Made by a program: the position numbers and the translations under genes | Notes under the pieces: model-generated | Database searches by the model: none | What the model saw: the letters and a program-made list of their open reading frames with translations, nothing else | What the model was told of the DNA's origin: nothing | Assembly (NCBI GenBank): GCA_965223295.1 | Contig: CBDCWC010000002.1 | Coordinates: 448,001 to 512,000, forward strand | Reading direction: 5' to 3' | DNA: 64,000 nucleotides | DNA from: Nitrospirales bacterium | Lineage (GTDB): Bacteria; Nitrospirota; Nitrospiria; Nitrospirales; UBA8639 | Part shown: positions 31,721-62,706 of the stretch, piece by piece | Layout of the letters: each line of letters begins with the position of its first letter | Position numbering within the stretch: the stretch's first letter is position 1

Positions 31721-32830
31721 TTGAAATCATGCCACAATGTTGATGTATTAGTCGTCGGAGGAGGGCCTGCGGGGTTAGCTCTTAGCCTAACCTTAGTAAA
31801 AGAGGGTTTTAGCGTCACAGTACTAGAGCGTTCGTTCTATAAAGATCTGCGTGTGGGAGAAACCGTTCCACCGGACATCAAGCCACTTCTGCGTGAATTG
31901 GGTCTTTGGCAACGGCTCAGTATGAGCAGTCATTTGCCCTATGAATCGATCTGTTCATATTGGGGATCACCTACTCCACAGATTCATGATTTTCTACTCA
32001 ATCCGTATGGCTCAGGCTGGTATCTGGATCGTAATCGTTTTGACGGAGAGTTAGCCGCAGCAGCTGAAGAGTCAGGTGCGACTATCAATCGCGGCTTTCA
32101 CCTCGAGGCGTTATATCTTGCAAATACGACTTGGGAAGTCAGTGCGTGCAGAGGTAAGCAGCAGATAAACTTCAAGGCAAAATATTTGGTTGATGCAACT
32201 GGACGAAATGCCATCGTTGCGAGACGGCTCGGTTTGAAAATCTTTTCTTATGATAAGCTCATTGGGGTTCTAGGATATTTTGCTGCCCCTGAATGGCATA
32301 CAGAGGAGTCTCTGCTTTTAGAATCAACAACAAATGGATGGTGGTATTCCACTCCATTACCAGGGAAAAAGGTTGTTGTGGGGTTTATGAGTGATACAGA
32401 TTTGCTAAACAAGGAAAGCCATGCTCATCGCTATTTTCTGAATCAAACGATGAAAAGTATCCCACATATGCAACAGAGACTTAACGGATGTCAATGGAAA
32501 ATGGGCAAGATCAAAACTGCCCATACCTCGCTTACTGAAAGACCCAAACCAGACAGTACATTTCTTGCTATAGGAGACGCCGCACTTGCCTTTGATCCTT
32601 TGTCATCACAAGGAATCATAAAGGCACTACGGTCTGGGTTCCACGGTGCTCGGGCCATCTTATCGCACCATAAGGGTAAGATTAATGCTCTGACTATGGA
32701 GTTCCAGAAAAATATCACCGAAATGAAGGAATACCTTCACCTCCGACAAGAATACTATGCCATGGAAACCCGCTGGACAAATTATCCGTTTTGGCAGCGT
32801 CGGCATGTTCTTCCTGGGATATTCTCATGA
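31721..32830 (+). CDS. LodB/GoxB-type FAD-dependent flavoprotein (CTQ maturase)
   Basis: GGGPAG, RVGETVPP, DATGR, GWWY, GDAA.AFDPLSSQGI, Y..E.RW...PFW.RR; directly downstream of lodA-like gene. Confidence 0.88.
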   Translation: MKSCHNVDVLVVGGGPAGLALSLTLVKEGFSVTVLERSFYKDLRVGETVPPDIKPLLRELGLWQRLSMSSHLPYESICSYWGSPTPQIHDFLLNPYGSGWYLDRNRFDGELAAAAEESGATINRGFHLEALYLANTTWEVSACRGKQQINFKAKYLVDATGRNAIVARRLGLKIFSYDKLIGVLGYFAAPEWHTEESLLLESTTNGWWYSTPLPGKKVVVGFMSDTDLLNKESHAHRYFLNQTMKSIPHMQQRLNGCQWKMGKIKTAHTSLTERPKPDSTFLAIGDAALAFDPLSSQGIIKALRSGFHGARAILSHHKGKINALTMEFQKNITEMKEYLHLRQEYYAMETRWTNYPFWQRRHVLPGIFS

Positions 32831-33642: not shown

Positions 33643-34065
33643 ATGCTAGAGCTGACAATTAGAAAAGGGTTGAGGGCCACAGGCCGGCGAATGACTCGCA
33701 CCCGAAAAGCTGTCTTAGCGCTGTTAGAGCGTACGCATCAGCCGTTGAGTGCTTCCGAGATTTATTCCCAATTACGGAAAGATCGGATTGCCATTGATCT
33801 CGTCACGGTCTATCGAACCTTGCACGTGTTAAAGGAATTAAGTTTGGTGGTCCAATTAGATGTGTTTCAGGAAGGCCAATCTCGCTATGAGTTGAAGGAA
33901 GGTCGAAAGCACCACCATCATATTCGGTGTCAAACCTGCGGACGAATGGTCGATTTGTTGTTGTGCCCGTTAAAGAAACTAACAAAGTTAATTGAAGCAC
34001 GCACACGATTTGTAGTGGATGATCATACCTTGGAATTCACAGGTTTTTGCCCTCAATGTCAATAA
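33643..34065 (+). CDS. Fur family transcriptional regulator (Zur-like)
   Basis: T..R.AVL..L, TVYRTL, HHHHIRC..CG, C-terminal GFCPQC. Confidence 0.93.
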   Translation: MLELTIRKGLRATGRRMTRTRKAVLALLERTHQPLSASEIYSQLRKDRIAIDLVTVYRTLHVLKELSLVVQLDVFQEGQSRYELKEGRKHHHHIRCQTCGRMVDLLLCPLKKLTKLIEARTRFVVDDHTLEFTGFCPQCQ

Positions 34066-34081
34066 CACAAGAAAGACAGAA

Positions 34082-34558
34082 ATGAGCACATTTGGTCCTA
34101 AACTCTCGAAGGCTGGTTCTATCGCATCTCTAATTTGTGCGATACATTGTGCGCTTACTCCATTGGCCCTGTTGGCCCTTCCAGTTATTGCGGCTCATTC
34201 CTGGGATGGTTTAGATGGGATTTTAGGCGCCTTTTGGGCTGAAAAAACGGAATGGGTTTTCTTGGCTGTTATTGCTCTCTTAGCAGGGTTTGGCTTATTG
34301 GCAACGTATCCACGTCATCGTGATATTCGTCCGACTATACTGACCATCCTTGGCCTGACTGTCTTGACGATTTCCCATTTGTGGATTGAAGCGGGGAGTG
34401 GGCAGGAAATATTCCTTGATGTGCTAGGCGCTTCTTTAATTGCATGGGCGGGTTTTTGGAATCGTCGTCTCTGCCATCATTTGGGATGCCATACTCATGA
34501 ACAGGCTCATCAACCAACCGGGACCCAAGTCGAACCACTTCCCAAACTATCTTCCTAG
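34082..34558 (+). CDS. MerC-domain membrane protein
   Basis: ASLICAIHCALTP motif, 4 TM segments, C-terminal CHHLGCHTH. Confidence 0.85.
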   Translation: MSTFGPKLSKAGSIASLICAIHCALTPLALLALPVIAAHSWDGLDGILGAFWAEKTEWVFLAVIALLAGFGLLATYPRHRDIRPTILTILGLTVLTISHLWIEAGSGQEIFLDVLGASLIAWAGFWNRRLCHHLGCHTHEQAHQPTGTQVEPLPKLSS

Positions 34559-47535: not shown

Positions 47536-49515
47536 TTAAGGCTGTTTTATCGATAGACCATCCATTCTTTCGGCTCCGTAGCTGTAGAGGGAGCCATCCC
47601 AATTTAGATCAAACGTGCAACTGGTATTGGTGCCCAGGGAGCTTGGCGTGCAGCGCAGTACATCTGCGCTATCACCAGAAGTACTGTTGACACTAAATAT
47701 CCCACGGGTCGTCAGATAGATTTCGCCACTATCTGCGATCCAAACTCCAAAGATATCTTCGTCATTTGATTGGTTCAGACCAACATCTGACCCATCAAAG
47801 TAGAGAGCCCAGGAACCGCTCGTTGTTGTACCAAGTGAAGTAGGTGTGAAGACTAAGAGATCTTCATCCCGCCAACGAGTTCCGATCACGTTAACATTCC
47901 CAGCTGTGCTTAGCACAATACGTCCATCAGCGAGGACATGTAATGAGTCAATCTTTTCACCGTTAGTTGCCAGGCCGACGTCAGAGCCGTCAAAATATAA
48001 TTCAAAGATCCCGCTCGTGGTTGTTCCGAGACTCGAGGGAATAAAGCGGACAATGTCGGAGTTGTCGACAGTGCCTACATTGGGAATCGTGGTATCTCCA
48101 ATGAAGGACAATAGTAGCGTTCCATCATCCAACACGTGAAAGGCGTTGATATCACGGGCTCCAGCACCAGAAAGACCCACATCGGAGCCGTCAAAGTATA
48201 GGCTCCACGTATTGGTCGTTCGATTAAAGGCCAGGATGTCCTCATCAGCGAAGGAAACGCCACCTACTGAACCGCCGGATGTAGAACTCAGATAGAGGAT
48301 AGTTTCAGCTGATGGTGTGTCAGTTACTGTCCAGGTGAAATCAGTACTCGCATTGCTAACTTGTCCATCATCCACGGTAACCGTCACGTTGTATTGTCCT
48401 ACAGTATCCAGCGTCCCTGTTATCGTCCCACTTGCGCTATTTATAGCTAGGTCTGAGGGTAAACCTGAGGCACTGTAAGTTAATTGATCGCCGTCGGGAT
48501 CGCTGGCATTAATGGCTAGATTAATCACGTCACCAAGAAGATGATCTTGGTTGCCAGGGTTAGAAATAGTTGGCGGATTATTCCCACCTGGTCCACTAGG
48601 TAAATTTACTGTCAGGCGGATACCTGTGGAATGCCATAATTCTCCCCCTTCAGAAGCTAAATGAGGTAAATAGCTTCGATACCAGAGTATATTGTCTTGA
48701 CCATTGATATTTTCCCCATTGTTTCCTAGCACACTGGTAATTGCGCCGTCAGTCCAGCCACCTGCTTCACTGCTGTGATATAGTCGTCCGTAGACCTGAC
48801 TATTAGCATACTCGGTTTCGGGGATTACCGTCCCTGGGACATTCCAGGTATTGGTATCGAACGCGACATCAACTGTCATTCCATTGACCGTATCTCTCAC
48901 TTGCCATTGATGATTATTCGCTTCGGTTGCAGCTGCATCGAATTCATTGGAATAGATCTCCCAAGCGGTACCGGTATGTCGTCTGATTTGATCAGACGCT
49001 GCTCCAGCCAGATCGAAGTCCAGCCGCCAAAACGGATAATGGAGGTGGTCTGTTTGGCACTGTAAGCCTTTGGCAAAGATATGGGCGTCAATTTGACCAC
49101 TCCCGCTCAAATACCAGACTTGATATAAGATATAGGCCCCAATTTGATCCTGAAACCCTATTTCTCGCCAAGTTTCACCATTTTGGGTAAATGTCCGATT
49201 CACCACTGAACTATTTCCTGCCCATGATACAGGCAGCCCCGACCCTCCGAGACGATCTGCGTAAGGGCCACAAGCATTATTTTCATAAAATACTGTCATG
49301 ACTGGCATGCTGGCTCGTTCCAACACCTTCACGCCTTGGTAGCTGACGTTACTCAGTGACATGCCATCAAAACGACTTGAGACCTCATAGTCTAAGGTCC
49401 ATCCCTCCCAATTAACACTCCCAGCACTTTGTGCTTGAACGATTATAGGAGTCCATAGCATCAATGCCGATGCCACAATCAAGTATGTGAACATGAATAT
49501 TTTTTTTGCCTTCAT
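47536..49515 (-). CDS. Secreted protein: copper-amine-oxidase-like catalytic domain + Ig-like (He_PIG) domain + C-terminal FDGSDVGL-repeat domain
   Basis: Signal peptide (VQA); V.WEGW.L.Y....DG..L.NV.Y.G..VLERAS.P.M.V.Y; HLH.PFWRLDFDL.G; WY....PH. Confidence 0.7.
   Translation of the reverse strand: MKAKKIFMFTYLIVASALMLWTPIIVQAQSAGSVNWEGWTLDYEVSSRFDGMSLSNVSYQGVKVLERASMPVMTVFYENNACGPYADRLGGSGLPVSWAGNSSVVNRTFTQNGETWREIGFQDQIGAYILYQVWYLSGSGQIDAHIFAKGLQCQTDHLHYPFWRLDFDLAGAASDQIRRHTGTAWEIYSNEFDAAATEANNHQWQVRDTVNGMTVDVAFDTNTWNVPGTVIPETEYANSQVYGRLYHSSEAGGWTDGAITSVLGNNGENINGQDNILWYRSYLPHLASEGGELWHSTGIRLTVNLPSGPGGNNPPTISNPGNQDHLLGDVINLAINASDPDGDQLTYSASGLPSDLAINSASGTITGTLDTVGQYNVTVTVDDGQVSNASTDFTWTVTDTPSAETILYLSSTSGGSVGGVSFADEDILAFNRTTNTWSLYFDGSDVGLSGAGARDINAFHVLDDGTLLLSFIGDTTIPNVGTVDNSDIVRFIPSSLGTTTSGIFELYFDGSDVGLATNGEKIDSLHVLADGRIVLSTAGNVNVIGTRWRDEDLLVFTPTSLGTTTSGSWALYFDGSDVGLNQSNDEDIFGVWIADSGEIYLTTRGIFSVNSTSGDSADVLRCTPSSLGTNTSCTFDLNWDGSLYSYGAERMDGLSIKQP
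47590..48260. repeat. Duplicated 3' segment (copy 1) shared with 51764-52430
   Basis: Near-identical DNA blocks, e.g. CACTAAATATCCCACGGGTCGTCAGATAGATTTCGCCACTATC in both genes. Confidence 0.9.
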
Positions 49516-49519: not shown

Positions 49520-50443
49520 TTAATCCTCCCGACTTTCTACGACGACTTGATCGGTCAGATCAACCCAGGCGACGTATTCCGGTCCCACATCAACATTATG
49601 GTGAAAGGAGACATATCCTATTCGATGGTCGAAAAATGCTGAATTTCCGTCTGTTGGCAATGCTAAAATCGTGTTGCCTTCTAACTCCGCTACTTGGGTA
49701 TTACCTTCAGCAATCAGCGTACGGCGGGCTATCTGGATGGCCTCAGCCACTTCTGTTTCAGTAAGTGGGGGCTGATATATAACCGGAGGTATTGGATGAA
49801 TGGTGATGACTGAATCTTGGTCTACAAGAACTTCAACGGTCATATTATTTGTGTGGCTGAAAAAGGTATGGCGGACCTGGTGGTTATTTCTTTGTCCTTT
49901 CATTCCAAGTAATTCTTGGCCTACATGTACATAACGATCACCCAAAGCGATTTGGACATCTGGTGACTGCAGCGTTAGTGTGTTTGCATTTTCCTGAGCG
50001 ATAGCCGCACGACCCATTAGTGCAACCGACTGTTCTGTTCTAATATTTTCCATCGATTTTGGTTGTGGCGGAAAGACATTGCCTACAGCTTCAAAGCGTA
50101 CGTTCGGATCTGTGCTTTGATCATGATGATGGATGCGATCGTGACTGTGAGGATCATCGGGCAACACTGTTTCACGGACTCGCAATTCACTTAGGATGTT
50201 TTGCACCTCTTCATGTTGTCGCTGCCACATTTCTTTCTTACACTCATGTATGAGGTCACGGTCACGATGTTGAGTCAATCGGGAATCGGTAGAATGAATG
50301 CTGATTTGAGATAGTTGCTGAAAAAGTGCAGGATTTGTACATTCAGCTTGAACGGTCGTTGTCCACAACCCTAGCACTAGAGGGCCGAGGACTAGTCCGT
50401 TCAGGCTAAACCAATAGCCGCGTCGACGAGTCGCCGTTGTCAT
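49520..50443 (-). CDS. Secreted protein resembling copper-amine-oxidase N-terminal (N2/N3) domains, with His-rich linker
   Basis: Signal peptide (VQA), QPPLT.TE..EA.QIA, AWVDLT...VV; 4 bp upstream of the 47536-49515 gene; AGGAG RBS. Confidence 0.6.
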   Translation of the reverse strand: MTTATRRRGYWFSLNGLVLGPLVLGLWTTTVQAECTNPALFQQLSQISIHSTDSRLTQHRDRDLIHECKKEMWQRQHEEVQNILSELRVRETVLPDDPHSHDRIHHHDQSTDPNVRFEAVGNVFPPQPKSMENIRTEQSVALMGRAAIAQENANTLTLQSPDVQIALGDRYVHVGQELLGMKGQRNNHQVRHTFFSHTNNMTVEVLVDQDSVITIHPIPPVIYQPPLTETEVAEAIQIARRTLIAEGNTQVAELEGNTILALPTDGNSAFFDHRIGYVSFHHNVDVGPEYVAWVDLTDQVVVESRED

Positions 50444-51189
50444 GGGGGACACTCCTTTGTTGGTATAGAGAGATTATAAGGGGGTAAGTGAAGCCATAAA
50501 GTACTACCAATAAAATAGATTCAAGGTCAAATTTAAAAAAAAGGTGAATAATAGCAATACCACAAAAGAAGGCAGGACATCTGTCAACTATGGAAATCTA
50601 AAAAAAAATCCTGGAAGGCCAATAAATTTTTGAATGGTTCTGTTGAAGTCATCGTGTGAATGAAAAGGTTACTGTTGGTCAAAATGTCCTTGGAAATATG
50701 CTTCTGGTTGGGAGACCCTAATTGTTTTTGTTTAAAAGGAGGCGTTGACATATCAGCGCTCTTTTTCTGAGATTAGTTAGATTGTTTCGAGGAAAGAAAT
50801 TCTCTGTGTCATACTCTCATAGACTGCGAACGCTTGAAGCCTGTTGTTTTGAGATTATTCAAGGAAAAAATTTTGGCTCTTTAGGCAGTACGCTAAAATT
50901 TGTTTTGATTTTTTTCATTGGGTATCTCTCCGTGTTTTTCGATTGAAGAGTCAACCTCTACAGTACGTTAATAAATCAAGGAAAAATATTTTGACTGTTT
51001 CTCAAGAGTTCACGGTAGAGATGTGACGTGCGTTTTTTTGTTTAATCCTACTACTTATAAGAAATTGTTCTTTTTTAAAATTTCCTGACATGAACCAAGC
51101 AAGGAATGTGGCAAAGTTGCCGAAAAGGAAGGAGACTTAACGAGATTAGTCATAAATTAGAAATTGGAGAAAATCTGGTGCACTGCAAA

Positions 51190-51654
51190 ATGACAGTCGT
51201 TCGAGTTGTTCTTTTTTGCTTTCTTTTCGTTGGTCTTTTTTCGAGTCCTCTTCTCTTTGCCAGTCCGACTTTTTTGAACCGACAGGCGTATCCTCTCCCG
51301 CTTGGCTTAACGGAAATTGGGAAGTTCCATAAGAATGATCTCAAGACATTTGAAATTTGGACACAATGGAGCAATCCCTCACACGAGAAAATCGTGGTCA
51401 ACGTCACCTTTACATTTTTTGACAAAGATTCTTCCGACTCGCAGTTAGGAGAAGATGGGAAGGATGATATCCTAATGACAGTGACGGAGACACTGATCAT
51501 TCCTGAGCAGACAAGCAACTGGGGAAAATATTCCCAACTCACGGCGATCGGGCACAAACTCAATCAAGGCTTTGATCACCCTGCGGAAGGTGCAGGTTTA
51601 GAATTGTACCTTGAAGCACAAGTCATTTCGGTTAAATATATTTCTCAGGAATGA
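51190..51654 (+). CDS. Secreted hypothetical protein
   Basis: Hydrophobic signal-like N-terminus; beta-rich. Confidence 0.6.
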   Translation: MTVVRVVLFCFLFVGLFSSPLLFASPTFLNRQAYPLPLGLTEIGKFHKNDLKTFEIWTQWSNPSHEKIVVNVTFTFFDKDSSDSQLGEDGKDDILMTVTETLIIPEQTSNWGKYSQLTAIGHKLNQGFDHPAEGAGLELYLEAQVISVKYISQE

Positions 51655-51713
51655 CATGCATTTTCTTTTGCCACTTTGCCAACGTGAATAATTTGGTAAC
51701 AGACTGGTTAACA

Positions 51714-53513
51714 CTATCCGCGCGATAGGCCATCGATATTCTCCGTCCCATAGCCGTTGGCCGAGCCATCCCAATTTAGATCGAACGTGCAACTGGTATT
51801 GGTGCCCAGGGAACTAGGCGTGCAGCGCAGCACATCTGCGCCATCACCAGAAGTACTGTTGACACTAAATATCCCACGGGTCGTCAGATAGATTTCGCCA
51901 CTATCAGCGATCCACACGCCAAAGATGTCTTCGTCATTTGATTGGTTCAGACCAACATCTGATCCATCAAAGTAGAGAGCCCAGGAACCACTGGTCGTAG
52001 CACCAAGCGAAGTAGGTGTGAAGACCAGGAGATCCTCATCCCGCCAGGTTGTACCCGTTACGTCTGAGTTGCCAATTGTGCTGATGACAAGCCGCCCGTC
52101 GTTTAAGAGATGCAGGGCATCAATATCTTCTCCGTTGGTTGTTAAGCCGACATCCGAGCCGTCAAAATACAACTCGAAGCGACCACTTGTACTTGTTCCC
52201 AGGCTTGTGGGGATAAACCGAACGATGTCCGAGTCGTCCACACTGCCTACGTCAGGAATTGTTGTTTCCCCGATAAAAGAGAGTAAAATCGTGCCATCAT
52301 TCAAGACGTGAAAGGCATTGACATCGCGGGCTCTATTACCAGATAAACCGACATCGGAGCCGTCAAAGTATCGGCTCCACGTATTGGTCGTTCGATTAAA
52401 GGCCATGATGTCCTCATCAGCGAAGGATATGCCACCAACCGAACCACCTGAGGTGGAACTGACGTACATCACATCTTGAGTTGGTGGAGCTGGATCGACG
52501 GTCCAGCTAAAATTAACAGTCGTTTGCCCGCCACGCCCGTCATTTACGATGATCGTTACGGAACTCTGGCCGTCCGTGGTCACCGTCCCGGTGATTGCAC
52601 CACTCGCCCCATTGATCGTTAATCCAGGCGGCAGGCCTGTTGTCGTATAAGTCAGCGAATCACCATCAGGATCACTGGCAATAATAGCAAGCGTCACCGT
52701 GTCCCCCACGGTATTGGTTTGGTTCCCGGGGTTGGTTACGATCGGAGGTTGATTCACCGGGGTGGAATTCACCGTCCAGGTAAAGGTCACACTATCTTGT
52801 CCCCCATTACTATCATCTACACCAACTGTGGGAGTAAATGTTCCTGCACTCGTCACGATTCCAGTGATGGCTCCGGTACTGCCATTGATACTTAACCCAG
52901 CCGGCAATCCTGTCGCATTGTACGTCAGTGTGTCTCCATCTAAATCAGACGCACTGAGGCTCAGTGCAATGCTCTCGCCTTCTGTAGAAGTTTGAGGTCC
53001 TGGATTTGTCAGAACTGGTGAAGAATTAACAATGGGTGGAGCCGGCTCGTGTTGATCAATTTGACCAAGGAAGGCCACTAACTGATTGAGTTGCGTAGTC
53101 GTGAACGAGGCGCCATCATGCGCGTTGATCGCATCAGCCAGCGAAGCGGCTGACCCATCGTGCAGATAAGGTGCTGTACTCCATAAGCCACGAAGTGTCG
53201 GAGTATCTAGACCCGTTAAAGGACCACCTAAACGACTACCACTACTCGTCTTAATCGTGCCAATGTTGTGGAGATTATTCGATGCGCTGTCTGTATAAGC
53301 TTGTCCTCTGTGACAACTGGCACATTGACTTGTTTCAAAAATCGAACGACCAGCTGCCCCATCGGGGGTCAATTCGCCATTGGTCGCGCGATTTGGACTG
53401 CTACCAAAACTCATTAAAGACTTGACATAGGCTGCCAAGGCATCGAGATCGGCACTCAAGCCCGCTTTGGCCGCGCCCAACGGGGGCACTCGTGGCATTG
53501 AAATCGGCATCAT
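51714..53513 (-). CDS. C-terminal fragment: second heme c domain + 2 Ig + repeat domain
   Basis: GRSIFE...CASCH, DTPTLRGLW.TAPYLHDGS. Confidence 0.75.
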   Translation of the reverse strand: MMPISMPRVPPLGAAKAGLSADLDALAAYVKSLMSFGSSPNRATNGELTPDGAAGRSIFETSQCASCHRGQAYTDSASNNLHNIGTIKTSSGSRLGGPLTGLDTPTLRGLWSTAPYLHDGSAASLADAINAHDGASFTTTQLNQLVAFLGQIDQHEPAPPIVNSSPVLTNPGPQTSTEGESIALSLSASDLDGDTLTYNATGLPAGLSINGSTGAITGIVTSAGTFTPTVGVDDSNGGQDSVTFTWTVNSTPVNQPPIVTNPGNQTNTVGDTVTLAIIASDPDGDSLTYTTTGLPPGLTINGASGAITGTVTTDGQSSVTIIVNDGRGGQTTVNFSWTVDPAPPTQDVMYVSSTSGGSVGGISFADEDIMAFNRTTNTWSRYFDGSDVGLSGNRARDVNAFHVLNDGTILLSFIGETTIPDVGSVDDSDIVRFIPTSLGTSTSGRFELYFDGSDVGLTTNGEDIDALHLLNDGRLVISTIGNSDVTGTTWRDEDLLVFTPTSLGATTSGSWALYFDGSDVGLNQSNDEDIFGVWIADSGEIYLTTRGIFSVNSTSGDGADVLRCTPSSLGTNTSCTFDLNWDGSANGYGTENIDGLSRG

Positions 53514-53874
53514 CCATTAATCCAGTACCGCCAGCTAGACTACGAATCTGTCCTTCGAAATCCTGCACTTCGTCAAAGTTGCTGGTCCAATGGAGACGAC
53601 CATGCTCTGACCCGCCTCGCCCATTTAGACTAATGGTATTTCGTAATCCTTCACCAAAGCCTGTCAAATCCCAAACACGCCCATCATGATCACCGTCGTT
53701 ATGACATGAGGCACAACTTATGTAAGCATCACGGGCTAGGCGATTGTCTCGAGCGTCGTAAAACAGTTGTTTCCCGTTCAGGACTTGGCTCGACAATGCT
53801 TCATTTGCGACTGTCTCATAATTTGCAATGGCATTGACCGTGAATGATCCGACATTTATCAACTGAGAGATCAT
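53401..53874 (-). CDS. Middle fragment: first heme c domain
   Basis: GKQLFYDA, ISCASCH.DG..DGR.WD, RNTISL, LHW..NFDEVQDF. Confidence 0.7.
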   Translation of the reverse strand: MISQLINVGSFTVNAIANYETVANEALSSQVLNGKQLFYDARDNRLARDAYISCASCHNDGDHDGRVWDLTGFGEGLRNTISLNGRGGSEHGRLHWTSNFDEVQDFEGQIRSLAGGTGLMDDADFNATSAPVGRGQSGLECRSRCLGSLCQVFNEFW

Positions 53875-56800
53875 AGATGCCTATGCTACGGTCCATAAAA
53901 TTATGAACATAAAGTGTTAAGCCATCAGGTGAAACCGCAAGACCCTGAGGTGCACGCCCCACATCAAAACGGAAAAGTTCAGTTTGCTGATAGGTGTCAA
54001 CGACAGCAATTTCACGACTCGTTTCTAGGGCAACGAAATAGTAGTTGCCATACAATCCAAAGGTACCTGCACTGCCCAGCCCAGCATTATCGTGATCCAA
54101 GCGCGCTGAAAAGTCTTCGCTGTCGTTGGATAAATTTATACGGGATGAAATCGCTCTGACAGTATGCTCAAAGTTTAGATTGTTTCCATCACGTAATGTT
54201 CCGCGCAAAATATTATCTTGTTTCGAGGGCACCCATGCAGTAGTGCCATCTGGTGAAATAACTGGAGCTCCTAGATAATTTGGTACCCCACGAGCACCTG
54301 CTTCGAAATCAGCCCCATTATTTACAGCTAGAACGATCGTGTTACCAACGCTCATGGTTCCAGTGTTCACGACAACGATTTCGCCACCCACTCCAACAAT
54401 TTGTGGACTGGCGGTTTGCTCGCCGGGTAATGGTGGTGTAATGAATCGAGAGACGTAGACCTTACTGCCGTCAGAGGTGATAGCGATATGGCGAGGATTG
54501 GGGCCAACATTCACACTCCCTATTTGGCTAGCGTTGCTCGGATTGAGCTGTAGCAACATACCGGTGGCTTGAAGTGCCAGGTATCCATTGTTCCCAGACG
54601 GATCAAAGAGTAGGCCAAAGGGTTGCGAGCCAGATGGGAAATTAACTGTGTTGACAACACTTAATGAGATTTGATCGATGATACTCAGCGTGGCCGAGTC
54701 TTGATTGGTAACCCATATACGACCATCTGGTGCCGTAGCTAAGCTCCGTGGTTCATTCCCAACGCCAATTTCTGCAACTTTAGTGTTGGTTATCGTATCA
54801 AAGACAGTAACTGTATTATTGTCAGGATTAACTGCCCATATTCGATCATTTCCACTTCGTGATTCGTACATCACACTCATAGAGCTGGATGGACGATTTG
54901 CTGTGAAGGGACGATGAATTGCCTGGTAGAACTGTCGAGAGACTTCTTGCGCACTATTGTCCGTCACCGTCACGGTGACAATGTAACGGCCAGGGTTTTG
55001 AAATGTATGCGAGATTGCTGCCGAGGTGCTGTATGCTGTTTCGGGAGTATTATCGCCGAAGAGCCACTTATACTGTAGTGCTCCGTTTCCGCCACTCGCG
55101 GTCGCTGTGAAGGTGATGGATTGATCAGTTGGTTGAGGGGAAGAAGTGAAGGGAGAAATGGTTATTGTTGGAGCAGGACTAATGATCCAGGTAAATGTAG
55201 TACTGTCTTGACCACCGTTGCCGTCAACCACGTTAACGGTTGTATTGAATGTCCCAGAGCTAGAAATCGTGCCACTTATCACGCCAGTAGTGTTATTGAT
55301 ACTCAAGCCCGAGGGTAGCCCACTGGAACCGTAAGAGAGTATGTCTCCATCCGAATCACTTGCACTGATGGGTAAACTTACGATGTCCCCCTCAATATTT
55401 GTTTGACTGCCAGGATTTGTTACAACGGGCGGTTGGTTCACTGGGCCAGGATTTGTCACAGTCCACGTAAACACGACACTGACATTCTCCATGCCATCAC
55501 TTATATTGAGTGTGACTGTATAGGTTCCGGCGCTATCACTGGCTAAAGTTCCCGCAATTACTCCAGTATTGCTATTGATATTCAAGCCCGGAGGTAGTCC
55601 AGTTGCGCTGTAGCTGAGGGTGTCTCCATCTGGATCGCTTGCGCTGATGGGTAGGCTTACGACGTCCCCTGCAATGTTGGTTTGATTTCCTGGATTGGTT
55701 ATGACGGGAGCTTGATTGCCGGGAGGTGAGACAAACAGTATGGTTTTTTCATTTGCGTTGTTGGCAAGAGTCCCTTGCGCGACAGGTGATCCCCAGTTGA
55801 TACCATCCGTACTAATATAAAATCGATAGGCCGACACGGTCCCATTGCCACCGCCTGGTCTGGGCAGATACTTAAATCCACCTAGATCATAACTTGCACC
55901 CAAGTTCACGACGATCTCATGAGGATGAGCTGGATCATTGTCGTCCCCAGCATTGGCAAACCATTCGGTATGCCAGAAGGTTTGGGTGTTTCCATCAATA
56001 GCATTGACGGCTCGTCCGTCTTCTCCCACTGTCTCTTGACTATCGAATGAGACCACCGACCAACCTACTTGGTTTAATGGATTGCCATTGGTGTCCAACA
56101 CATTGAGTTCAGCCATGCTTGTCCATGGTTTTCCATTAATTTCAGAATCAGCAACAAAGCGAACATATTGATGAGCGCCTGGCGTGGGAGGTTCGCTCAC
56201 GACTTGGATGACTTTGGCGATAGAAGGAACGTTTTGCTCATTGAGTGCGAAAAGCATCCAGTAACCCGGTGTCAATACGTTGCGGTTACTCTCCAATGTC
56301 AGTTGATAGTTTCCATTGTCGCTACTAAAAGGCACGTTGAGGAATCGTACATCTGTGTTGTGAGAATGAGTCGTTCCCGACATTTTGATCATGCTGAATT
56401 TCTGAATGTTGGGGGTGGCGACTACGTCGACTGTGGCTCCAAATGTTGAAATGTCTGTGGCACTAGTGATCGAGGGACGAGTAGCTAACGTGCCGTCGGC
56501 ACTAAAAAGATAAGATGGCGAGTAGATTTGGTGGTCAGGATGATCGGCATTACAGCCACACAATCCCCCGCCGCCAGAAAAGACACGGCCGTCAGGCATG
56601 AGCAGTGCCACGGAATGGTAATTGCGGGGCACTGTGTGGTCTGCCACTTCCCGCCACAGTTGAGTCTGTGGATTCCAGATTTCAGGGGTCAGAATTGTAC
56701 CCTGATCGCTAAACCATACATCCTGGGATGTGCCACCGACGACCAAGACTTCCCCTGTTGGCAACACCACAGCATTGGAATGGGCGCGCGGTTGTATCAG

Positions 56801-57793
56801 ATTGTTTACCGGCGTCACCTGAGGCGTTGTCCCATTCATGTCCACAATGGTGGCCCTATTTTTGGCACTGACTCCTCCAAGCGTCAAAACCTTGCCTTTG
56901 TCAAACATGATCATCGTGCCTGCCTGATTATTTGCATCCCAGTCGGTAATCCCCGCGGCAGTTTCCTGAATTGAGCCATTACCCTGTGGAGTGATGTAAT
57001 GCATTTGGGGAGTGGGGCCAAGATGTAGAATGTCGCCATTGGGAGCTACCGTGAGCATGGGGAACCATTCCGGGCGTCCATAATCTGTGTAGTCAAGAAT
57101 AGGACCTTGCAGATCAATGCCAGTGAGCCATTGCCACCCTGAGCCTTCCGTCCACAACTCTGGGTAACGACTTCCGGGACTGCCTAAAGCCATAAAGACC
57201 TGGCCATCTGGGAGTTGTAGGGACCCGTTGTACCAGCGACCAATATTGGCGTCGTCGATACGTCGCCAATTGTTGGTGCGATAATCAAAAAGACTGGTAC
57301 GTTCTCTCGTTCCATCACCTCCGACGACAAAGATTTGACCATTTTCCCGCATGGTAGGAATTGCACAGAACATTGAATGTTGGGCATAGTTGTCCTCGGT
57401 AATCTGTCCTGTTACCGGATCCCATATACCTGTATATGTGTTAGAACCACCATTAAAGGTAGTTCGGTTGTTCCCGCCCCAGGCAATAATTCGGCCATCC
57501 GGTAGATTGGCGGCGGACGCAAATACGAAGGGCCAAGTTGTTACTGGACCCCACTGACCGACCTGGTCGAGAGGCTCATTGGCTGCTAAGGCTTCTCCTG
57601 CGAGGGGCTCATTGGTTGATAAGGATTGTTGTTGAGGTGTAACAAATGCGGGTTCATTGCGTTGGCGAGCGAGTTCTGCTGCTGCATAGTCCTCATCAAC
57701 GTGTGACCATGCATGCCCGATTAAGCCTATTTCTAATGTGAATAAAGTCAAAAATACAAAATTCCATTTCCGCCAAAAATACTGAGATTTCAT
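53816..57793 (-). CDS. N-terminal fragment: galactose-oxidase-like + F5/8 type C + Ig + PKD + YVTN beta-propeller
   Basis: HSMFC, RWYN, RNYHSVALL, TTHSHNTD; AIDGN..TFWHT; YKWLFGD; VGNEPR/VGRAPQG blades. Confidence 0.85.
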   Translation of the reverse strand: MKSQYFWRKWNFVFLTLFTLEIGLIGHAWSHVDEDYAAAELARQRNEPAFVTPQQQSLSTNEPLAGEALAANEPLDQVGQWGPVTTWPFVFASAANLPDGRIIAWGGNNRTTFNGGSNTYTGIWDPVTGQITEDNYAQHSMFCAIPTMRENGQIFVVGGDGTRERTSLFDYRTNNWRRIDDANIGRWYNGSLQLPDGQVFMALGSPGSRYPELWTEGSGWQWLTGIDLQGPILDYTDYGRPEWFPMLTVAPNGDILHLGPTPQMHYITPQGNGSIQETAAGITDWDANNQAGTMIMFDKGKVLTLGGVSAKNRATIVDMNGTTPQVTPVNNLIQPRAHSNAVVLPTGEVLVVGGTSQDVWFSDQGTILTPEIWNPQTQLWREVADHTVPRNYHSVALLMPDGRVFSGGGGLCGCNADHPDHQIYSPSYLFSADGTLATRPSITSATDISTFGATVDVVATPNIQKFSMIKMSGTTHSHNTDVRFLNVPFSSDNGNYQLTLESNRNVLTPGYWMLFALNEQNVPSIAKVIQVVSEPPTPGAHQYVRFVADSEINGKPWTSMAELNVLDTNGNPLNQVGWSVVSFDSQETVGEDGRAVNAIDGNTQTFWHTEWFANAGDDNDPAHPHEIVVNLGASYDLGGFKYLPRPGGGNGTVSAYRFYISTDGINWGSPVAQGTLANNANEKTILFVSPPGNQAPVITNPGNQTNIAGDVVSLPISASDPDGDTLSYSATGLPPGLNINSNTGVIAGTLASDSAGTYTVTLNISDGMENVSVVFTWTVTNPGPVNQPPVVTNPGSQTNIEGDIVSLPISASDSDGDILSYGSSGLPSGLSINNTTGVISGTISSSGTFNTTVNVVDGNGGQDSTTFTWIISPAPTITISPFTSSPQPTDQSITFTATASGGNGALQYKWLFGDNTPETAYSTSAAISHTFQNPGRYIVTVTVTDNSAQEVSRQFYQAIHRPFTANRPSSSMSVMYESRSGNDRIWAVNPDNNTVTVFDTITNTKVAEIGVGNEPRSLATAPDGRIWVTNQDSATLSIIDQISLSVVNTVNFPSGSQPFGLLFDPSGNNGYLALQATGMLLQLNPSNASQIGSVNVGPNPRHIAITSDGSKVYVSRFITPPLPGEQTASPQIVGVGGEIVVVNTGTMSVGNTIVLAVNNGADFEAGARGVPNYLGAPVISPDGTTAWVPSKQDNILRGTLRDGNNLNFEHTVRAISSRINLSNDSEDFSARLDHDNAGLGSAGTFGLYGNYYFVALETSREIAVVDTYQQTELFRFDVGRAPQGLAVSPDGLTLYVHNFMDRSIGIYDLSVDKCRIIHGQCHCKL

Positions 57794-58446
57794 GATATGT
57801 TCCTTCGGGTCTAGATACGGCCAGAGTGGTAGTCCCTGAATAACTAGTGATGGGTGGATAATTAACAAAGTCGTAGAAGAAAAAACTATGACTCATAAGA
57901 GGTACTGTGGTCTGATGAATCTTCGCGAGGTTGCACCGTGGAGATTCTCAGAGGCAGGGTTGGTCGGAAAGCTGTTGTCTGCCATTTGAAATATTTGAGG
58001 ACCTGTACAGGCCTTGGACGCCATGAACTATCAGCCAACCTTCACAGGCTGAAAGAGCCATCTGCTTAGATCAACGAAATACCATGGGATATGAAGAGAT
58101 AATTTGGGATAATTCATCCACCTCATTACAATGGCTAATATAGAGAGGCTGCTGATGACAAAGAACGCACCAAAGAGAATAGCCGGGCAGCCACGGATAG
58201 TGGGCTTGCCTATTAGCTTGGCCCCTAAGCAGGAAAACGTTTGATATTTTGGTATAGAGCGGTTTCCACATCGTCCATGTCTTTTGTCGTCATGTGATTT
58301 GTAAAGGATGATCCCTTGTCTTTCTTGTCCGTGCCTCTTCTCAGTCTATTGACTCTTGTTGCCAAGAGTGAGAGTGATAGTTCATAGATCTTTCTTTGGT
58401 ATACTGGGCGCTATAATAGAACACATTCACTAGCGCAGAAGGAGAC

Positions 58447-59814
58447 GTGAGGCAGATGAAACAGATTATGGTTGTCGGGGCAGGGGCGGTTGGTGGGTAT
58501 TTCGGAGCGCATTTAGCACGAAAGCATTCGAATGTGTCTTTTTTATTGCGGCCCAAAACACAACAGGCCGTGGCGATCAACGGCCTGACAATTCGAAGTG
58601 CGATTGGAGAGAATTTTACCGTGCGTCCTCCTTCGGCATCTCATCCACAAGACTTGCCCCAGTCTGATCTAATCATTCTAGGTGTGAAGGCATATGATCT
58701 GGATGAAGTCATGGATCAACTTGAGCCAATCTTGAGACCCGATACGACGATTTTAACATTACAAAACGGTGTCACGATTGAAGATAGGTTGAAAATGAGG
58801 TTTGGGCGGGAGCGTGTGGTGGGCGGAGTCGCATTTATTTATTCCAAGATTGCCGAGCCTGGTGTAATCGAGCATTTCAAGAAAGGAATGGTCACAATTG
58901 GCGAGTTAATGGGGTTGGAGACACCGCGTCTTCGACAAATACAAGAGTTCTTTAAGGAAGCGGGGATCCCATGCTTTTTGACTGATGATATTCGCAAAGC
59001 TAAGTGGGAGAAAATGTGTTGGAATTGTGTCTTTAATCCTCTGACCGTGGTTCTCAATGATCATGTTGCGAAAGCTTTGGACGAGCCCGCCTTGCAACCG
59101 GTCATTACCACGATTGTTCAAGAAGTCGCCGCCATCGCGATGGCCACCCAGCGAGTGCCGTTGGACGGAGATATGCCTGAGAAAGTTGTGAGATGGTCGC
59201 AAGAGCTTCGAGATATTCATACTTCGATGTACGATGATTGGAAGGCTGGACGTCAGACTGAAATTGATGAGTTAAACGGGTATGTTGTGAAAGAGGGAAA
59301 AGAATTAGGTGTGCCAACGCCCATGAATGAGATGTTGACAGCGCTTGTTAAGGGGATGACAGTACAAAAGTGTGTGGAGGAGCCAGTTGTAAGTGTAGAG
59401 GGCGATGTTCAACATGCCCTGCAATTTTCTCGAGCACATTTACGGAATCTGCCTGAGAAATATCAAGTTTCTGATATTGGCGCCGTGATGCCAAATATGC
59501 GGGGTGCGGGTGTAAAAATTCAAGCACTCTTGGAAGCCGTGACTCTTCAAGTAGGAGTTGATCATGTGACTTTTTATTCCGAAGATCAAAATTATTCAGC
59601 CTGTCTCACGGTAGATCAGGCTCATCAGTTTGGTATTTTGCTGTATGAACAAAATGGAGAAGGTTTCCCCGATGAGCAGGGAGGTCCGTTTCGATTTGTT
59701 GCTCCGGGATTGGGCGATCTGTGTGCAAATGTGAAGCAGGTTCGGGAAATAGTTTTTTCGATAGGGTCTGTTCAAGATACACGTCCTCTCAAAGCGTGTA
59801 CAGAAGAGCGGTAG
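58447..59814 (+). CDS. panE: 2-dehydropantoate 2-reductase fused to C-terminal sulfite-oxidase-family (Oxidored_molyb-like) domain
   Basis: VGAGAVGG, VKAY, LQNG, WEK..WN, TSMYDD...GR.TEID.LNG; C-terminus LLYE.NG.....QGGPFRFVAPG....NVKQV. Confidence 0.88.
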   Translation: MRQMKQIMVVGAGAVGGYFGAHLARKHSNVSFLLRPKTQQAVAINGLTIRSAIGENFTVRPPSASHPQDLPQSDLIILGVKAYDLDEVMDQLEPILRPDTTILTLQNGVTIEDRLKMRFGRERVVGGVAFIYSKIAEPGVIEHFKKGMVTIGELMGLETPRLRQIQEFFKEAGIPCFLTDDIRKAKWEKMCWNCVFNPLTVVLNDHVAKALDEPALQPVITTIVQEVAAIAMATQRVPLDGDMPEKVVRWSQELRDIHTSMYDDWKAGRQTEIDELNGYVVKEGKELGVPTPMNEMLTALVKGMTVQKCVEEPVVSVEGDVQHALQFSRAHLRNLPEKYQVSDIGAVMPNMRGAGVKIQALLEAVTLQVGVDHVTFYSEDQNYSACLTVDQAHQFGILLYEQNGEGFPDEQGGPFRFVAPGLGDLCANVKQVREIVFSIGSVQDTRPLKACTEER

Positions 59815-60200
59815 GAAGGGCCATCCCAGAAGTTGGCTCTTCATAAAGTTTCTGCAAAAATTTCCTTCAACTGTATAAGGTTTTTGTAAAGATTTTCATG
59901 CATCGTAAGTTTTTCAGACCGTCTTTATCACAGTCATTGAATTGGCCAACTAAGTTTCTCAACATCATCAGTCAAGCCATTCTGTAATGCCAGTAAGGGT
60001 ACAGCCTCATTTCCCTTAAACGGTTGTTTGAAGATCATGGCTTGAGTCCTTGAGTAATTGCAGGCCATAGCTTGCACGTTCTTCATTTCGCCTTGTTTGA
60101 CCATTTTCCGCCTTTTCCCTACACTCCGCTGTCATAAAAACCGCATTGTATTTTTTGATGCCTGCTTTCATTTATCTATCCTCTTTTGCAGGAGGAAGTC

Positions 60201-61493
60201 ATGGATAAACTCGAAATTTTTCCCTGGGCCAAAAACTTTGAAACCGGCATTGATGTTATTGATGAACAGCATAAGAAATTAGTGACTATTTTGAATACTT
60301 TAGCAGGGCATCTGGCGAACTGTTCTTTGCCGGACGAGATGAATACGGTCTTCGATGAGTTAGCGGCCTATGCCAACTATCATTTCAAGTCGGAAGAGGA
60401 AATTTGGAGTGCGCATTTTAAGGATGATCAGTGGTACATGAATCATCTTAAAACACATGAAACCTTCCTTAGTAATGTGGGGAATTTAAAAAAAGAAGAA
60501 GGTGAGAAATCCCTGGATAAGGTCATCCAGGATATTGTGACTTTTCTTTCGAAGTGGCTGGCTTATCATATTTTAGATACCGACAAACGCATGGCCAAAA
60601 CGATTCAGGCGATGGAATCAGGGAAGTCTCTGGAAGAAGCTAAAGCCATTGCCAATGAAGAGATGAGTGGTTCGATGAGAGTGCTGATCGATACCGTACT
60701 CAACATGTATGAGGGGATCTCCGTTCGTACTGTCGAGCTGATGCGGGAAAAGGTTCGCCGGAGACAAGCTGAACAGGCATTAGCTGCAAGCGAAGAACGC
60801 TGGAACTTTATTCTGAAATACATCTTGAGTGACAATGAAGACAATGTCTGGGATTGGGATATTGAAAACAGTATTCAATATCTTTCTGGAGTCGATCTCC
60901 CTGTATTTTATGTGGTGGATGATAGCCAGCCATCCTTCAAGAAAGATTCGACGATTCATCCGGCTGATTTTGAGAAGGTCAAAGAGGACTTGCAGGCGCA
61001 TCTTGATGGTAAAACAGATTTCTTCATTAACAAGCATCGGGTCTTACGTCATGGGGGACAGTGGTCCTGGGTGTTATCTCGAGGGAAAGTGGTCAGTCGT
61101 GATGAGCGCGGTAAGGCTTTACGGATGGTGGGCACGCAAACGGATATTACTGAGCGGGAACTGGCAGCGCTCATCTATAAAAATAGCAGTCAGGCGATGT
61201 TTGTAACTGATCTTGAAAACAAGATTATCGGGGTGAATACGGCATTTTCAAAGCTGACGGGTTATGCCGCTGATGAAATCATTGGGAAATCTTCGGCTTA
61301 TTTTTTATCGGATAGGCATGATAAGGAATTTTTCCAGCAAATAAAGGAAAGCCTGGCCTTAACTGGGCGTTGGGAAGGTGAAATATGGAATACACGTAAA
61401 AACGGAGAAGAGTTTCCCGCGTTGCAGACGATTAATGCCGTTGTCGATTCAGAAGGTGTGCTGAATTATTCTGTCGGGCTCTTATATGACTGA
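60201..61493 (+). CDS. Bacteriohemerythrin + two PAS domains (sensor N-part)
   Basis: W...FETG...IDEQH, HF.SEE, H..TH, WL..HI...D; PAS_3 IHP.D, DITER; GGAGG RBS. Confidence 0.88.
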   Translation: MDKLEIFPWAKNFETGIDVIDEQHKKLVTILNTLAGHLANCSLPDEMNTVFDELAAYANYHFKSEEEIWSAHFKDDQWYMNHLKTHETFLSNVGNLKKEEGEKSLDKVIQDIVTFLSKWLAYHILDTDKRMAKTIQAMESGKSLEEAKAIANEEMSGSMRVLIDTVLNMYEGISVRTVELMREKVRRRQAEQALAASEERWNFILKYILSDNEDNVWDWDIENSIQYLSGVDLPVFYVVDDSQPSFKKDSTIHPADFEKVKEDLQAHLDGKTDFFINKHRVLRHGGQWSWVLSRGKVVSRDERGKALRMVGTQTDITERELAALIYKNSSQAMFVTDLENKIIGVNTAFSKLTGYAADEIIGKSSAYFLSDRHDKEFFQQIKESLALTGRWEGEIWNTRKNGEEFPALQTINAVVDSEGVLNYSVGLLYD

Positions 61494-62706
61494 CATCAAA
61501 GCTGCAGTTGCTGACAGAGAACGGTTATTAGAAGATCTTCAGCAAGCACAAAAAATGGAATCATTGGGTCAGCTAACCAGTGGCATTGCCCATGATTTCA
61601 ATAATCTCTTAGGAATCATGACGGGCTATTCTGGGCTCGTGCTGGCAGGTTGCGAAAGTTTGGGCGAAGAGCGACTGATAGGGTATATGCGCCAAATGTG
61701 TGCCGTCAACAAATGTGCGGCGAATTTGGTCTCACAGATGCTTGCCTTCAGTCGAAATGATGAAATCGATGATGTTCCCATGCTATTTGCCCCTTTGCTA
61801 GAAAATGACATTGAGATTATACGTGCAACCCTGCCGATGACGATTGATATTCAATTCGAGAGCGAGCCGAATCTTCCAAGTGTCATGATGAGTCCTACGC
61901 AACTGCACCAAATTCTGATGAATCTGTCTCTCAATGCTCGTGATGCCATGGAGGGCCATGGCTGTCTACGGATTTCGTTGGGCTGGGCTCGTGGGTTAGA
62001 TGTGGTGTCGTCGGTTTCGAAGAAACGGGTTCAAGGAGACTGGATTGAACTGAGCGTGAGTGATACGGGTCCAGGTATTCACCCAGAGATCGTTCAGAAG
62101 ATCTTTAATCCGTATTACACCACGAAGGATGTCGGTAAAGGGACTGGACTAGGCCTGTCGGCTATTTACGGCATTGTAGAAAAACATGGTGGGCATATCT
62201 TATTGGAGAGTGAAGAGGGAAAAGGAAGTATATTTCGCATACTTTTTGCGCCGTTGCCAAGGGATCAACAGAAGCAAGTAGAAGAGCCTGTCGAAGCGCC
62301 TTCTGCAAAGTTTATCCGAGGGGATGGTTCCGAAATTTTAGTTGTGGATGATGAACCTGGATTTGCCACATTTATCGAGGCACTCCTCACGACACACGGA
62401 TATCAGGCTATGCCATGTACCGATTGGAATCAAGCGTTAGAGTTGTTTGCTCAAAATCCTTCACGATTCTCTTTAGTGGTTGCTGACCAGCATATACCTG
62501 GAATAACCGGTATCCAGTTGATTGGAAAAATTAGAGAGTTGCGACCAGAAATTCCAGCTATTGTGTGTTCGGCGTATAGAGAGAAAGGGGATGAAGGAGA
62601 AATGATAAATAAGGATATCGCTTTTTTCGAAAAACCTCTTGATGATACTCGATTTCTGAAGGCTGTGGGCCAGTTATTGGAAGCCTGTGGTGGAGTTGAA
62701 AAATAA
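61486..62706 (+). CDS. Hybrid histidine kinase HisKA-HATPase-REC (likely C-part of the preceding gene)
   Basis: QKMESLG.L.SGIAHDFNNLL, NL.LNARDAM, D.G.G, GKGTGLGL, ILVVDDE receiver. Confidence 0.9.
   Translation: MTDIKAAVADRERLLEDLQQAQKMESLGQLTSGIAHDFNNLLGIMTGYSGLVLAGCESLGEERLIGYMRQMCAVNKCAANLVSQMLAFSRNDEIDDVPMLFAPLLENDIEIIRATLPMTIDIQFESEPNLPSVMMSPTQLHQILMNLSLNARDAMEGHGCLRISLGWARGLDVVSSVSKKRVQGDWIELSVSDTGPGIHPEIVQKIFNPYYTTKDVGKGTGLGLSAIYGIVEKHGGHILLESEEGKGSIFRILFAPLPRDQQKQVEEPVEAPSAKFIRGDGSEILVVDDEPGFATFIEALLTTHGYQAMPCTDWNQALELFAQNPSRFSLVVADQHIPGITGIQLIGKIRELRPEIPAIVCSAYREKGDEGEMINKDIAFFEKPLDDTRFLKAVGQLLEACGGVEK

Follow-up and report, generated by a model that had tools for sequence, protein, structure and literature searches.

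Copper radical oxidases (CROs) produce H2O2 and drift into an inactive state from which peroxidases reactivate them (PMC11611005). Two described systems pair such an oxidase with a heme peroxidase. In Streptomyces, the bacterial CRO GlxA depends functionally on the heme peroxidase DtpA and the copper chaperone Sco, but the three are separate proteins and DtpA is a b-heme DyP rather than a di-heme c-type protein (PMC4736821). In the fungi Colletotrichum and Magnaporthe, a CRO-type alcohol oxidase cooperates with a dedicated heme peroxidase encoded in tandem; this natural pair is eukaryotic, consists of two genes and two polypeptides, uses a b-heme peroxidase of unrelated fold and acts on cuticular long-chain alcohols (PMC9770985). 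A third system is hydrazine synthase (5c2v), whose beta and gamma subunits and their fused homologues outside the anammox bacteria have a YVTN-type propeller followed by a di-heme domain like that of cytochrome c peroxidases (CCPs) (PMC12758564). Here we describe a gene of a Nitrospirales bacterium (GTDB order Nitrospirales, UBA8639; assembly GCA_965223295.1) that, once two frame breaks are bridged, joins a CRO and a propeller/di-heme module in one polypeptide. The stretch analysed, hereafter the window, comprises 64,000 nucleotides of contig CBDCWC010000002.1 (positions 448,001 to 512,000, forward strand), and the gene occupies positions 51714-57793 of its minus strand. The locus is a copy of a large secreted multidomain family, the conserved core of which consists of a CRO, a PKD/Ig stalk, a YVTN propeller and a di-heme c-type peroxidase-like domain. 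Both halves are of known kinds. Their covalent combination, its conservation and the hydrazine synthase-like tie are absent from the literature searched, in which no paper describing a CRO/di-heme fusion was found (main texts).

The window's gene appears as three successive minus-strand open reading frames (ORFs) in three different frames (51714-57868; 1350, 157 and 599 aa), namely ORF A (53816-57868; coding part 57793-53864), ORF B (53401-53874; coding part used 53862-53482) and ORF C (51714-53513; coding part used 53480-51717, stop codon 51714-51716). The database copy of the window protein, P0001, has 1325 aa, which places the likely start at the ATG at 57791-57793; the sequence that follows, judged by eye, looks like an N-terminal signal peptide or anchor (57704-57793; MKSQYFWRKWNFVFLTLFTLEIGLIGHAWS). 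Comparison of the intact homologue P0002 (2111 aa, labelled as a Nitrospira sp. M1 protein) with the window by tblastn gave a collinear run through frames -3, -1 and -2, in which P0002 residues 10-1559, 1558-1712 and 1687-2000 were matched by ORFs A, B and C, respectively. Bridging of both frame breaks yields a protein of 2026 aa. Frame break 1 (53860-53866) reads tca (53864-53866), a lone g (53863) and ttg (53860-53862) and does not lie within a homopolymer; since the relatives hold one additional residue here in the alignment, a loss of 2 nt is as likely as a gain of 1 nt. At frame break 2 (53478-53486), one surplus nucleotide lies in or beside a run of five C, the reading being ccc (53482-53484), g (53481, or a base within the C run) and ttg (53478-53480). 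Programmed frameshifting was rejected, as 61 ORFs in other genomes need no shift and the two sites have no slippery motif in common. As assembled, the gene could give only a heme-less oxidase-propeller protein with the presumed signal peptide; the heme module has no signal peptide of its own and would not mature. A promoter and terminator scan of 50400-58500 returned counts at or under the shuffled expectation.

Scanning with Pfam and NCBIfam models gave the domain order galactose oxidase-like E-set/glyoxal oxidase N-terminal domain, F5/8C, two He_PIG domains, PKD, YVTN propeller, CCP_MauG, RoxA-like cytochrome c and two further He_PIG domains. An earlier note on this DNA, made from the letters alone, had proposed a protein of about 2,026 aa obtained by joining two frameshifts, with all AA5 active-site positions and a heme part of the bacterial CCP (bCcP)/MauG superfamily. 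The collinearity with P0002, the residue assignments and the Pfam matches given below bear this out, and the note's motifs and coordinates (the two CASCH sites, TAPYLHDG and the end of the gene) were all correct. Its proposal would have fallen if no intact fused homologues existed, and such homologues proved abundant; nor did our literature search contradict its remark that no enzyme of this architecture had been characterised.

To establish how widely the fusion occurs, three collections were used. The first held the best 120 of 2272 significant matches to ORF A, among 8000 scored candidates. A CRO was present in 119 of these 120, and 111 contained the CRO, the propeller and both heme halves in the same order, with exactly two CXXCH sites in 110 (P0069 has four). 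The nine exceptions were the window protein itself, P0003, three CRO-only proteins (P0011, P0018 and P0071), three with a truncated heme domain (P0014, P0026 and P0093) and the Ig-only P0107. The second was a genome scan with one genome per species, which gave at least 618 confirmed stretches, and from which 79 loci were kept for locus analysis. Within these loci, 61 ORFs (1315-3293 aa) contain all modules in a single frame; only two loci (L030 and L072) seem split, and the remainder are ended by contig ends. The minimal form has about 1400-1470 aa and consists of the CRO, some 175 aa including PKD, the propeller and the heme domain; the intact homologue of Steroidobacter agaridevorans SA29-B (L045, 9833-14221), for example, has 1462 aa. 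The third was a profile search of 1.84 billion representatives, which yielded 5047 matches at E 1e-30 or better; among the best 150 of these, 123 showed the CRO-propeller-heme combination and 27 had no CRO, several of the latter being complete-looking stand-alone propeller-heme proteins that start with M. These results demonstrate that the fusion is real and not an artefact of frame joining.

The fusion spans at least six phyla. According to record titles, the hosts include Verrucomicrobiota (among them Prosthecobacter and Brevifollis gellanilyticus NBRC 108608), Gammaproteobacteria (Steroidobacter agaridevorans SA29-B, Methyloglobulus, Leucothrix and Thiotrichaceae), Burkholderiales (Methylibium, Rhizobacter, Piscinibacter and Rubrivivax), Chloroflexota, Acidobacteriota and one Planctomycetota bin; bin labels reading Bifidobacterium, Akkermansia and Heliobacteriaceae look doubtful. 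Tandem paralogues were seen at four loci (L001, L012, L055 and L078), either as two fused genes or as a fused gene beside a propeller-heme-only gene.

The CRO domain (kelch-type propeller plus E-set, 56198-57580) matched the AA5_2 galactose 6-oxidases, including that of Fusarium graminearum (GalOx; 1gof/2eid), over about 460 residues at E 1e-76 to 1e-90 (HMMER: 9g8h, 1.3e-90, query residues 23-480; 1gof, 5.8e-76). PF09118 (E-set/DUF1929) scored 62.9 bits, well over its cut-off of 25, and PF07250 scored 25.1 bits in the scan, under its cut-off of 37.5, although it is present among the precomputed domains of P0001. When positions were hand-counted along the printed HMMER alignment to 2eid (mature numbering), the Cys of HSMFC (57365-57367) fell on Cys228, the Tyr of RWYN (57230-57232) on Tyr272, the Tyr-His of RNYHS (56615-56620) on Tyr495 and His496, and the His of TTHS (56366-56368) on His581. 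All five residues are invariant in alignment A1 (15 full-length sequences); in the domain alignment A3, the equivalents of Tyr272, Tyr495, His496 and His581 are present in 36 of 36 sequences and that of Cys228 in 35 of 36. A Thiotrichaceae homologue (L066, 411-4934) has Ala at the cofactor Cys, and Leu-Met where others hold the candidate His heme ligand described below. The position of GalOx Trp290, which stacks on the cofactor, aligns to Pro or a gap in a locally gapped alignment, and that stretch of A3 holds no conserved Trp; the stacking residue differs among CROs. The match to the GlxA structure 4unm (E 7.1e-29) was confined to the C-terminal half, and the GlxA equivalog NF052501 scored 146.9 bits against a cut-off of 800. 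Judged by its sequence, the domain is a competent AA5_2-like CRO, with copper binding, the Cys-Tyr cross-link and the oxidation of alcohols or aldehydes under release of H2O2 as predicted properties. GalOx too carries a discoidin/F5/8C-type module; it precedes the catalytic domain there and follows it here. The fusion protein further differs from GalOx in being bacterial and in being joined covalently to a propeller/di-heme module and Ig-like stalks.

The YVTN-type beta-propeller (53864-54913; TIGR02276/TIGR03866) abuts the heme domain. The N-terminal half of the latter (53482-53862) contains heme site 1, a CASCH at 53701-53715, and matched PF03150 with 26.1 bits (cut-off 25.6); the C-terminal half (53034-53480) contains heme site 2, a CASCH at 53310-53324, as well as the TAPYLHDG motif (from codon 53175-53177 downward), and matched PF21419 with 30.2 bits (cut-off 26.7). 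The two halves are 72% (to residues 1558-1712) and 74% identical to P0002, respectively. The C, C and H of heme site 1 are invariant in alignment A4, and there is little or no variation in either CXXCH site, in the Trp of LHW, in a DFEGQ stretch or in PY(L)HDG. With canonical di-heme CCPs (Shewanella CcpA 3o5c and Nitrosomonas 1iqc), the module shares the two CXXCH sites and an alignable C-terminal domain including PY(F/L)HDG, but the N-terminal domain past the first CXXCH is unaligned, the module is fused to a propeller, and no partner cytochrome or cupredoxin is evident. A His (53118-53120) located 14 residues past the His of PYLHDG occupies, in the alignments, the position at which 3o5c, 1iqc and 9qdt have their Met ligand, and is kept in at least 90% of the family. 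The canonical His/Met ligation of the electron-transfer heme of bCcPs is thus not found here; the conserved His as candidate sixth ligand suggests that the second heme is probably His/His. The invariant Trp of LHW (53587-53589) is only a presumptive counterpart of the Trp that bridges the hemes in the bCcP/MauG superfamily, because the region linking the first CXXCH to the second domain aligned with no solved bCcP.

To place the module within the superfamily, profiles were compared with the PDB. With the heme domain only, the best matches were hydrazine synthase gamma (2.6e-23), CcpA 3o5c (8e-22) and Nitrosomonas 1iqc (6e-19), and far weaker ones were obtained with other PF03150 superfamily members, namely MbnH 6e1c (5e-13, over 32 positions only), MauG (3e-8 to 2e-7) and BthA (1e-5). 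The profile of the propeller-heme pair gave its strongest match with 1l0q, a YVTN propeller of an archaeal S-layer (3.7e-46), followed by the gamma subunit of hydrazine synthase (9e-22), CcpA of Shewanella (8e-21), the hydrazine synthase beta subunit 5c2v_B (5.7e-19) and Nitrosomonas CCP (4e-18); MauG reached no better than about 1e-5 to 1e-6. Such matches, at 1e-21 to 1e-23 for the heme-module profile and 1e-90 for the CRO, are far above chance. Scores with the MauG model TIGR03791 were 20.6 and 27.4 bits where the cut-off is 443.85, no mau-type gene was found among the scanned ORFs of the window, and the curated cut-offs for MauG, MbnH, the hydrazine synthase subunits, RoxC and GlxA were all missed by wide margins. 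A MauG-type assignment, in line with the MauG-like enzymes that the earlier note drew on, was rejected on these profile and equivalog scores. The heme module is, as far as sequence comparison goes, a member of the bCcP/MauG superfamily but not a MauG, and stands nearer to canonical bacterial peroxidases and to hydrazine synthase beta/gamma.

The propeller is no mere spacer: it is contiguous with the heme domain in every homologue, its dense conservation in the alignments includes many polar positions that never vary, and together the two recall hydrazine synthase beta plus gamma. An AlphaFold2 (AF2) model of the pair, with the Caldilineaceae homologue at L004 rather than the window protein as its first sequence, reached a pLDDT of 87.7 and a pTM of 0.91. 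Foldseek with this L004 model ranked 1l0q and hydrazine synthase beta 5c2v_B first (TM(target) 0.78 for 5c2v_B); the other hits were mostly generic WD40/G-beta propellers, and no match to the heme domain surfaced. In both the fusion and hydrazine synthase, an SCASCH...WDL motif follows at heme site 1, and the second heme of the gamma subunit (gamma-II) is described as bis-His (PMC12758564). However, the hydrazine synthase equivalogs NF052341, NF052342 and NF052340 scored 41.9, about 27 and 38.2 bits against cut-offs of 625, 1250 and 560, no alpha subunit was seen, and the fusion hosts are mostly aerobes with the module joined to a CRO. What the two have in common is architecture and fold, and N-N chemistry is not claimed. 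As the propeller-heme module also occurs without a CRO, it is an enzyme unit in its own right and not a mere accessory of the oxidase.

Between the CRO and the propeller lie an F5/8 type C (discoidin) domain of carbohydrate-binding type (55730-56026; PF00754, E 7.7e-18) and a variable stalk of two He_PIG Ig-like domains and one PKD (54941-55720; PF05345, 1.5e-33 in two stretches; PF18911, 1.3e-16). The distance from CRO to propeller ranges from about 175 to about 840 aa across homologues, and lectin-type accessory modules occur throughout the homologues in precomputed Pfam lists. Two more He_PIG Ig-like domains follow the heme module (52506-53018; PF05345, E 6.4e-35, two stretches). The protein closes with a domain of about 250 aa made of four beta-sheet repeats with an FDGSDVGL motif (51717-52478), for which no Pfam match was found. 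Its AF2 model is all-beta (pLDDT 92.8); Foldseek against the PDB gave nothing convincing, the best hits being kelch propellers at TM 0.45 or less, and the structure-atlas search returned unnamed clusters only. This domain is 83% identical to the C-terminus of the protein encoded by the neighbouring gene at 47536-49515 (-) and, at 55-65% identity, also closes many secreted proteins of Chloroflexota (Caldilineaceae) with peptidase, FG-GAP or other heads; it may be a shared anchoring or binding module. The neighbouring gene has a Shine-Dalgarno-like site of its own and encodes a separate secreted protein of 659 aa with a signal peptide, a weak match to copper amine oxidases and a He_PIG domain. 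It is set apart from the fusion gene by an AT-rich gap and a 310-aa ORF without a family.

Examination of the gene neighbourhoods showed two recurrent partners connected with copper. Of the 59 loci whose flank extends for at least 1 kb, 9 have a SCO1/SenC gene immediately downstream in the same orientation (L045, 14211-14807; L051, L054, L058, L064, L070, L034, L072 and L057); in eight of the nine it is within about 50 nt of the main gene or overlaps it, and at L057 it is about 2 kb off. This recalls the requirement of GlxA maturation for Sco (PMC4736821). An MbnP-MbnH-like (MbnP-CCP_MauG) fusion lies directly upstream in 10 of 61 loci (L049, 8058-9893; L002, L015, L018, L025, L038, L041, L044, L050 and L059); MbnH is reported to convert a Trp of the copper-binding protein MbnP into kynurenine (PMC11951088). 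Neither of the two adjoins the window's gene. No neighbour was common to more than 11 of the 79 loci, and the neighbour clusters of gyrase/topoisomerase IV subunit A, nitrilase, sigma-54 regulator, PSCyt, sulfatase and TPR proteins were dropped, as they look lineage-specific. Elsewhere in the window, a copper P-type ATPase of the CopA type, bearing two metal-binding domains at its N-terminus, is encoded at 25230-27743 (-), and a Fur-family regulator gene overlaps a MerC-family gene at 33643-34558 (+).

Taken together, the stand-alone propeller-heme units and the densely conserved propeller favour a relay of H2O2 to a unit with its own substrate. We give an even chance to the reading that the oxidase supplies H2O2 to a propeller-bound di-heme peroxidase acting on that substrate, with reactivation of the oxidase and removal of H2O2 as by-products. 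The CRO, of the galactose oxidase type with Cu and a Cys-Tyr radical, would oxidise a primary alcohol, probably on a glycan held by the lectin-like modules, and reduce O2 to H2O2. The tethered unit would take up this H2O2 at its first heme and, with the second heme (predicted His/His) as a relay, use the oxidising power so gained on a second substrate, bound at the highly conserved propeller. This would incidentally keep the CRO in its active radical state and shield the cell from H2O2. The hand-over of H2O2, the peroxidase activity, the substrate and secretion beyond the periplasm are what we infer. The three roles that the earlier note had considered for the heme module, namely activation of the oxidase, detoxification of its H2O2 and a second oxidation, are plausible and have precedents in the Streptomyces (PMC4736821) and fungal (PMC9770985) systems.

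Several observations weigh against such a relay. The variable length of the stalk argues against a fixed electron-transfer interface, a bis-His second heme is probably of low resting potential, and GalOx Trp290 has no aligned counterpart. The copper-chaperone neighbours occur in a minority of loci and no neighbour is universal. CRO-only and heme-module-only relatives exist, implying that neither part strictly requires the other, and P0473 bears its CRO after the propeller (one case among the best 150 of the 5047 matches). The window copy is interrupted twice, and that of its closest relative, P0003, at another site. The function of the family is a prediction.

If the heme module served only as an activator, it would oxidise by one electron, or mature, the Cu/Cys-Tyr site of its own CRO and have no substrate of its own. 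Peroxidases do reactivate semi-reduced, inactive CROs (PMC11611005; PMC12951238), horseradish peroxidase acting so in vitro and DtpA or the fungal tandem peroxidase in vivo; GlxA maturation depends on DtpA (PMC4736821), the fungal oxidase and peroxidase cooperate (PMC9770985), and in the present family the CRO and the heme module are persistently in one chain. Yet the module exists without a CRO at near-identical profile scores, its propeller is conserved in many invariant polar residues as expected for a binding or catalytic site, and long variable linkers separate the two parts, so that we consider a purely activating role unlikely. Somewhat less probable still is mere co-localisation, in which the oxidase and an unrelated propeller/di-heme enzyme, possibly acting on N-oxides as its hydrazine synthase relatives do, would share a surface stalk without coupling. 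The variable stalks, the stand-alone occurrence of both halves and the one case of reversed order would fit this, as would the presence of hydrazine synthase beta and gamma among the best structural relatives of the heme module and the reported existence of fused beta-gamma-like homologues outside the anammox bacteria in which Trp replaces gamma-His144 (PMC12758564). Against it, the pairing recurs in at least six phyla and in 123 of the 150 best representatives, and a maker of H2O2 and a heme protein of peroxidase fold form a chemically obvious couple. A further possibility is a dehydrogenase mode in which O2 is not the oxidant and the hemes carry electrons away from the reduced Cu site to an external acceptor, much as happens in cellobiose dehydrogenase with its cytochrome domain or in quinohemoprotein dehydrogenases. 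A bis-His second heme, as predicted here, is reminiscent of hemes that serve electron transfer, and the propeller of quinohemoprotein amine dehydrogenase appears in the Foldseek list (rank 41); however, the heme domain retains the peroxidase-type fold and motifs, and no CRO is known to operate as a dehydrogenase. We regard this mode as highly improbable.

The preferred relay of H2O2 can be extended to a more specific proposal, which we put forward as doubtful: that the propeller/di-heme unit is a new kind of enzyme driven by H2O2 and sister to hydrazine synthase beta-gamma, and the fusion a self-sufficient two-step machine. The CRO would make a C6 aldehyde on a glycan, and its H2O2 would go directly to the hemes, which would oxidise that polymer a second time, for instance by turning the aldehyde into a uronate or by cross-linking through radicals, and so build or remodel sheaths, holdfasts or the biofilm matrix. 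Many filamentous and surface-attached lineages carry the gene.

As for the window's own copy, real decay and assembly error have roughly even odds, and we rate a genuine, recently inactivated pseudogene, as opposed to a misread intact gene, just short of an even chance. The two breaks lie within 400 bp and the first is outside any homopolymer. P0003 (1343 aa), from the closest relative (AlaS 86% identical), is independently broken and ends in a 12-residue tail that is a +1-frame reading of propeller-coding DNA, equivalent to window position ~54560. No intact copy at 90% identity or more was found among proteins of 742-2363 aa, only the two loci named above, of the 79 in other genomes, look split, and the window, with an ORF coverage of about 84%, also carries a PanE gene with an in-frame molybdopterin-oxidoreductase fragment. 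On the other hand, the frames past the breaks are open throughout and share 72-74% identity with P0002, versus 60-67% upstream; being at least as conserved as the upstream part, they imply that decay, if real, set in very recently. What looks like a third single-base break interrupts a hemerythrin-PAS/histidine-kinase gene 8 kb away within the same 64 kb, and the genomes of the clade are on megabase contigs, as is typical of long-read assemblies, which often contain indel errors. When the 599-aa fragment was used as query, close relatives yielded no fragment with at least 90% identity, a negative that does not extend to the presence or absence of the gene in the relative whose AlaS is 98% identical. 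The AlaS encoded in the window falls within Nitrospirales, with 77-79% identity to Nitrospira/Nitrospirota records and 64-65% to Nitrospira sp. M1 and Ca. Nitronereus thalassa (named matches).

The hemerythrin-PAS-PAS ORF (60186-61493, +) and the histidine kinase/receiver ORF (61486-62706, +) overlap by 8 nt at a junction that reads tta tat, g, act gac. The former stops exactly where its PAS domain does, and kinase homology begins at residue 8 of the latter, which looks like the third break. The gene at 58447-59814 (+) encodes a complete PanE/ApbA ketopantoate reductase (residues 1-305) followed in frame by about 100 residues matching PF00174 positions 64-161 of 169, and this middle portion of PF00174 may be a gene remnant. 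Two other systems were seen in the window. A quinoprotein amino-acid oxidase resembling LodA/GoxA, which carries a peptidoglycan-binding domain at its N-terminus (29856-32830, +) and is followed by an FAD-dependent LodB-like gene, forms a second H2O2-producing oxidase system, and two tandem B12-binding radical SAM genes (15935-19817, +; 631 and 657 aa) matched best, far under the cut-offs, to RiPP-maturation and P-methyltransferase subfamilies.

The window locus itself is a damaged or mis-assembled example, which tempers its local interest; it is the family that merits experiment. CROs are prized as biocatalysts, yet they need an added peroxidase or chemical oxidant and suffer damage by their own H2O2, and a single chain that carries an oxidase and a heme peroxidase-like module could be a self-activating, self-protecting CRO. 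The family occurs in hundreds of bacterial lineages, including the cultured Steroidobacter agaridevorans and Brevifollis gellanilyticus. The fusion would be a bacterial, covalent counterpart of the GlxA/DtpA/Sco system of Streptomyces and of the fungal tandem pair, and it places a large aerobic family beside the beta-gamma unit of hydrazine synthase, the evolutionary origin of which is debated (PMC12758564).

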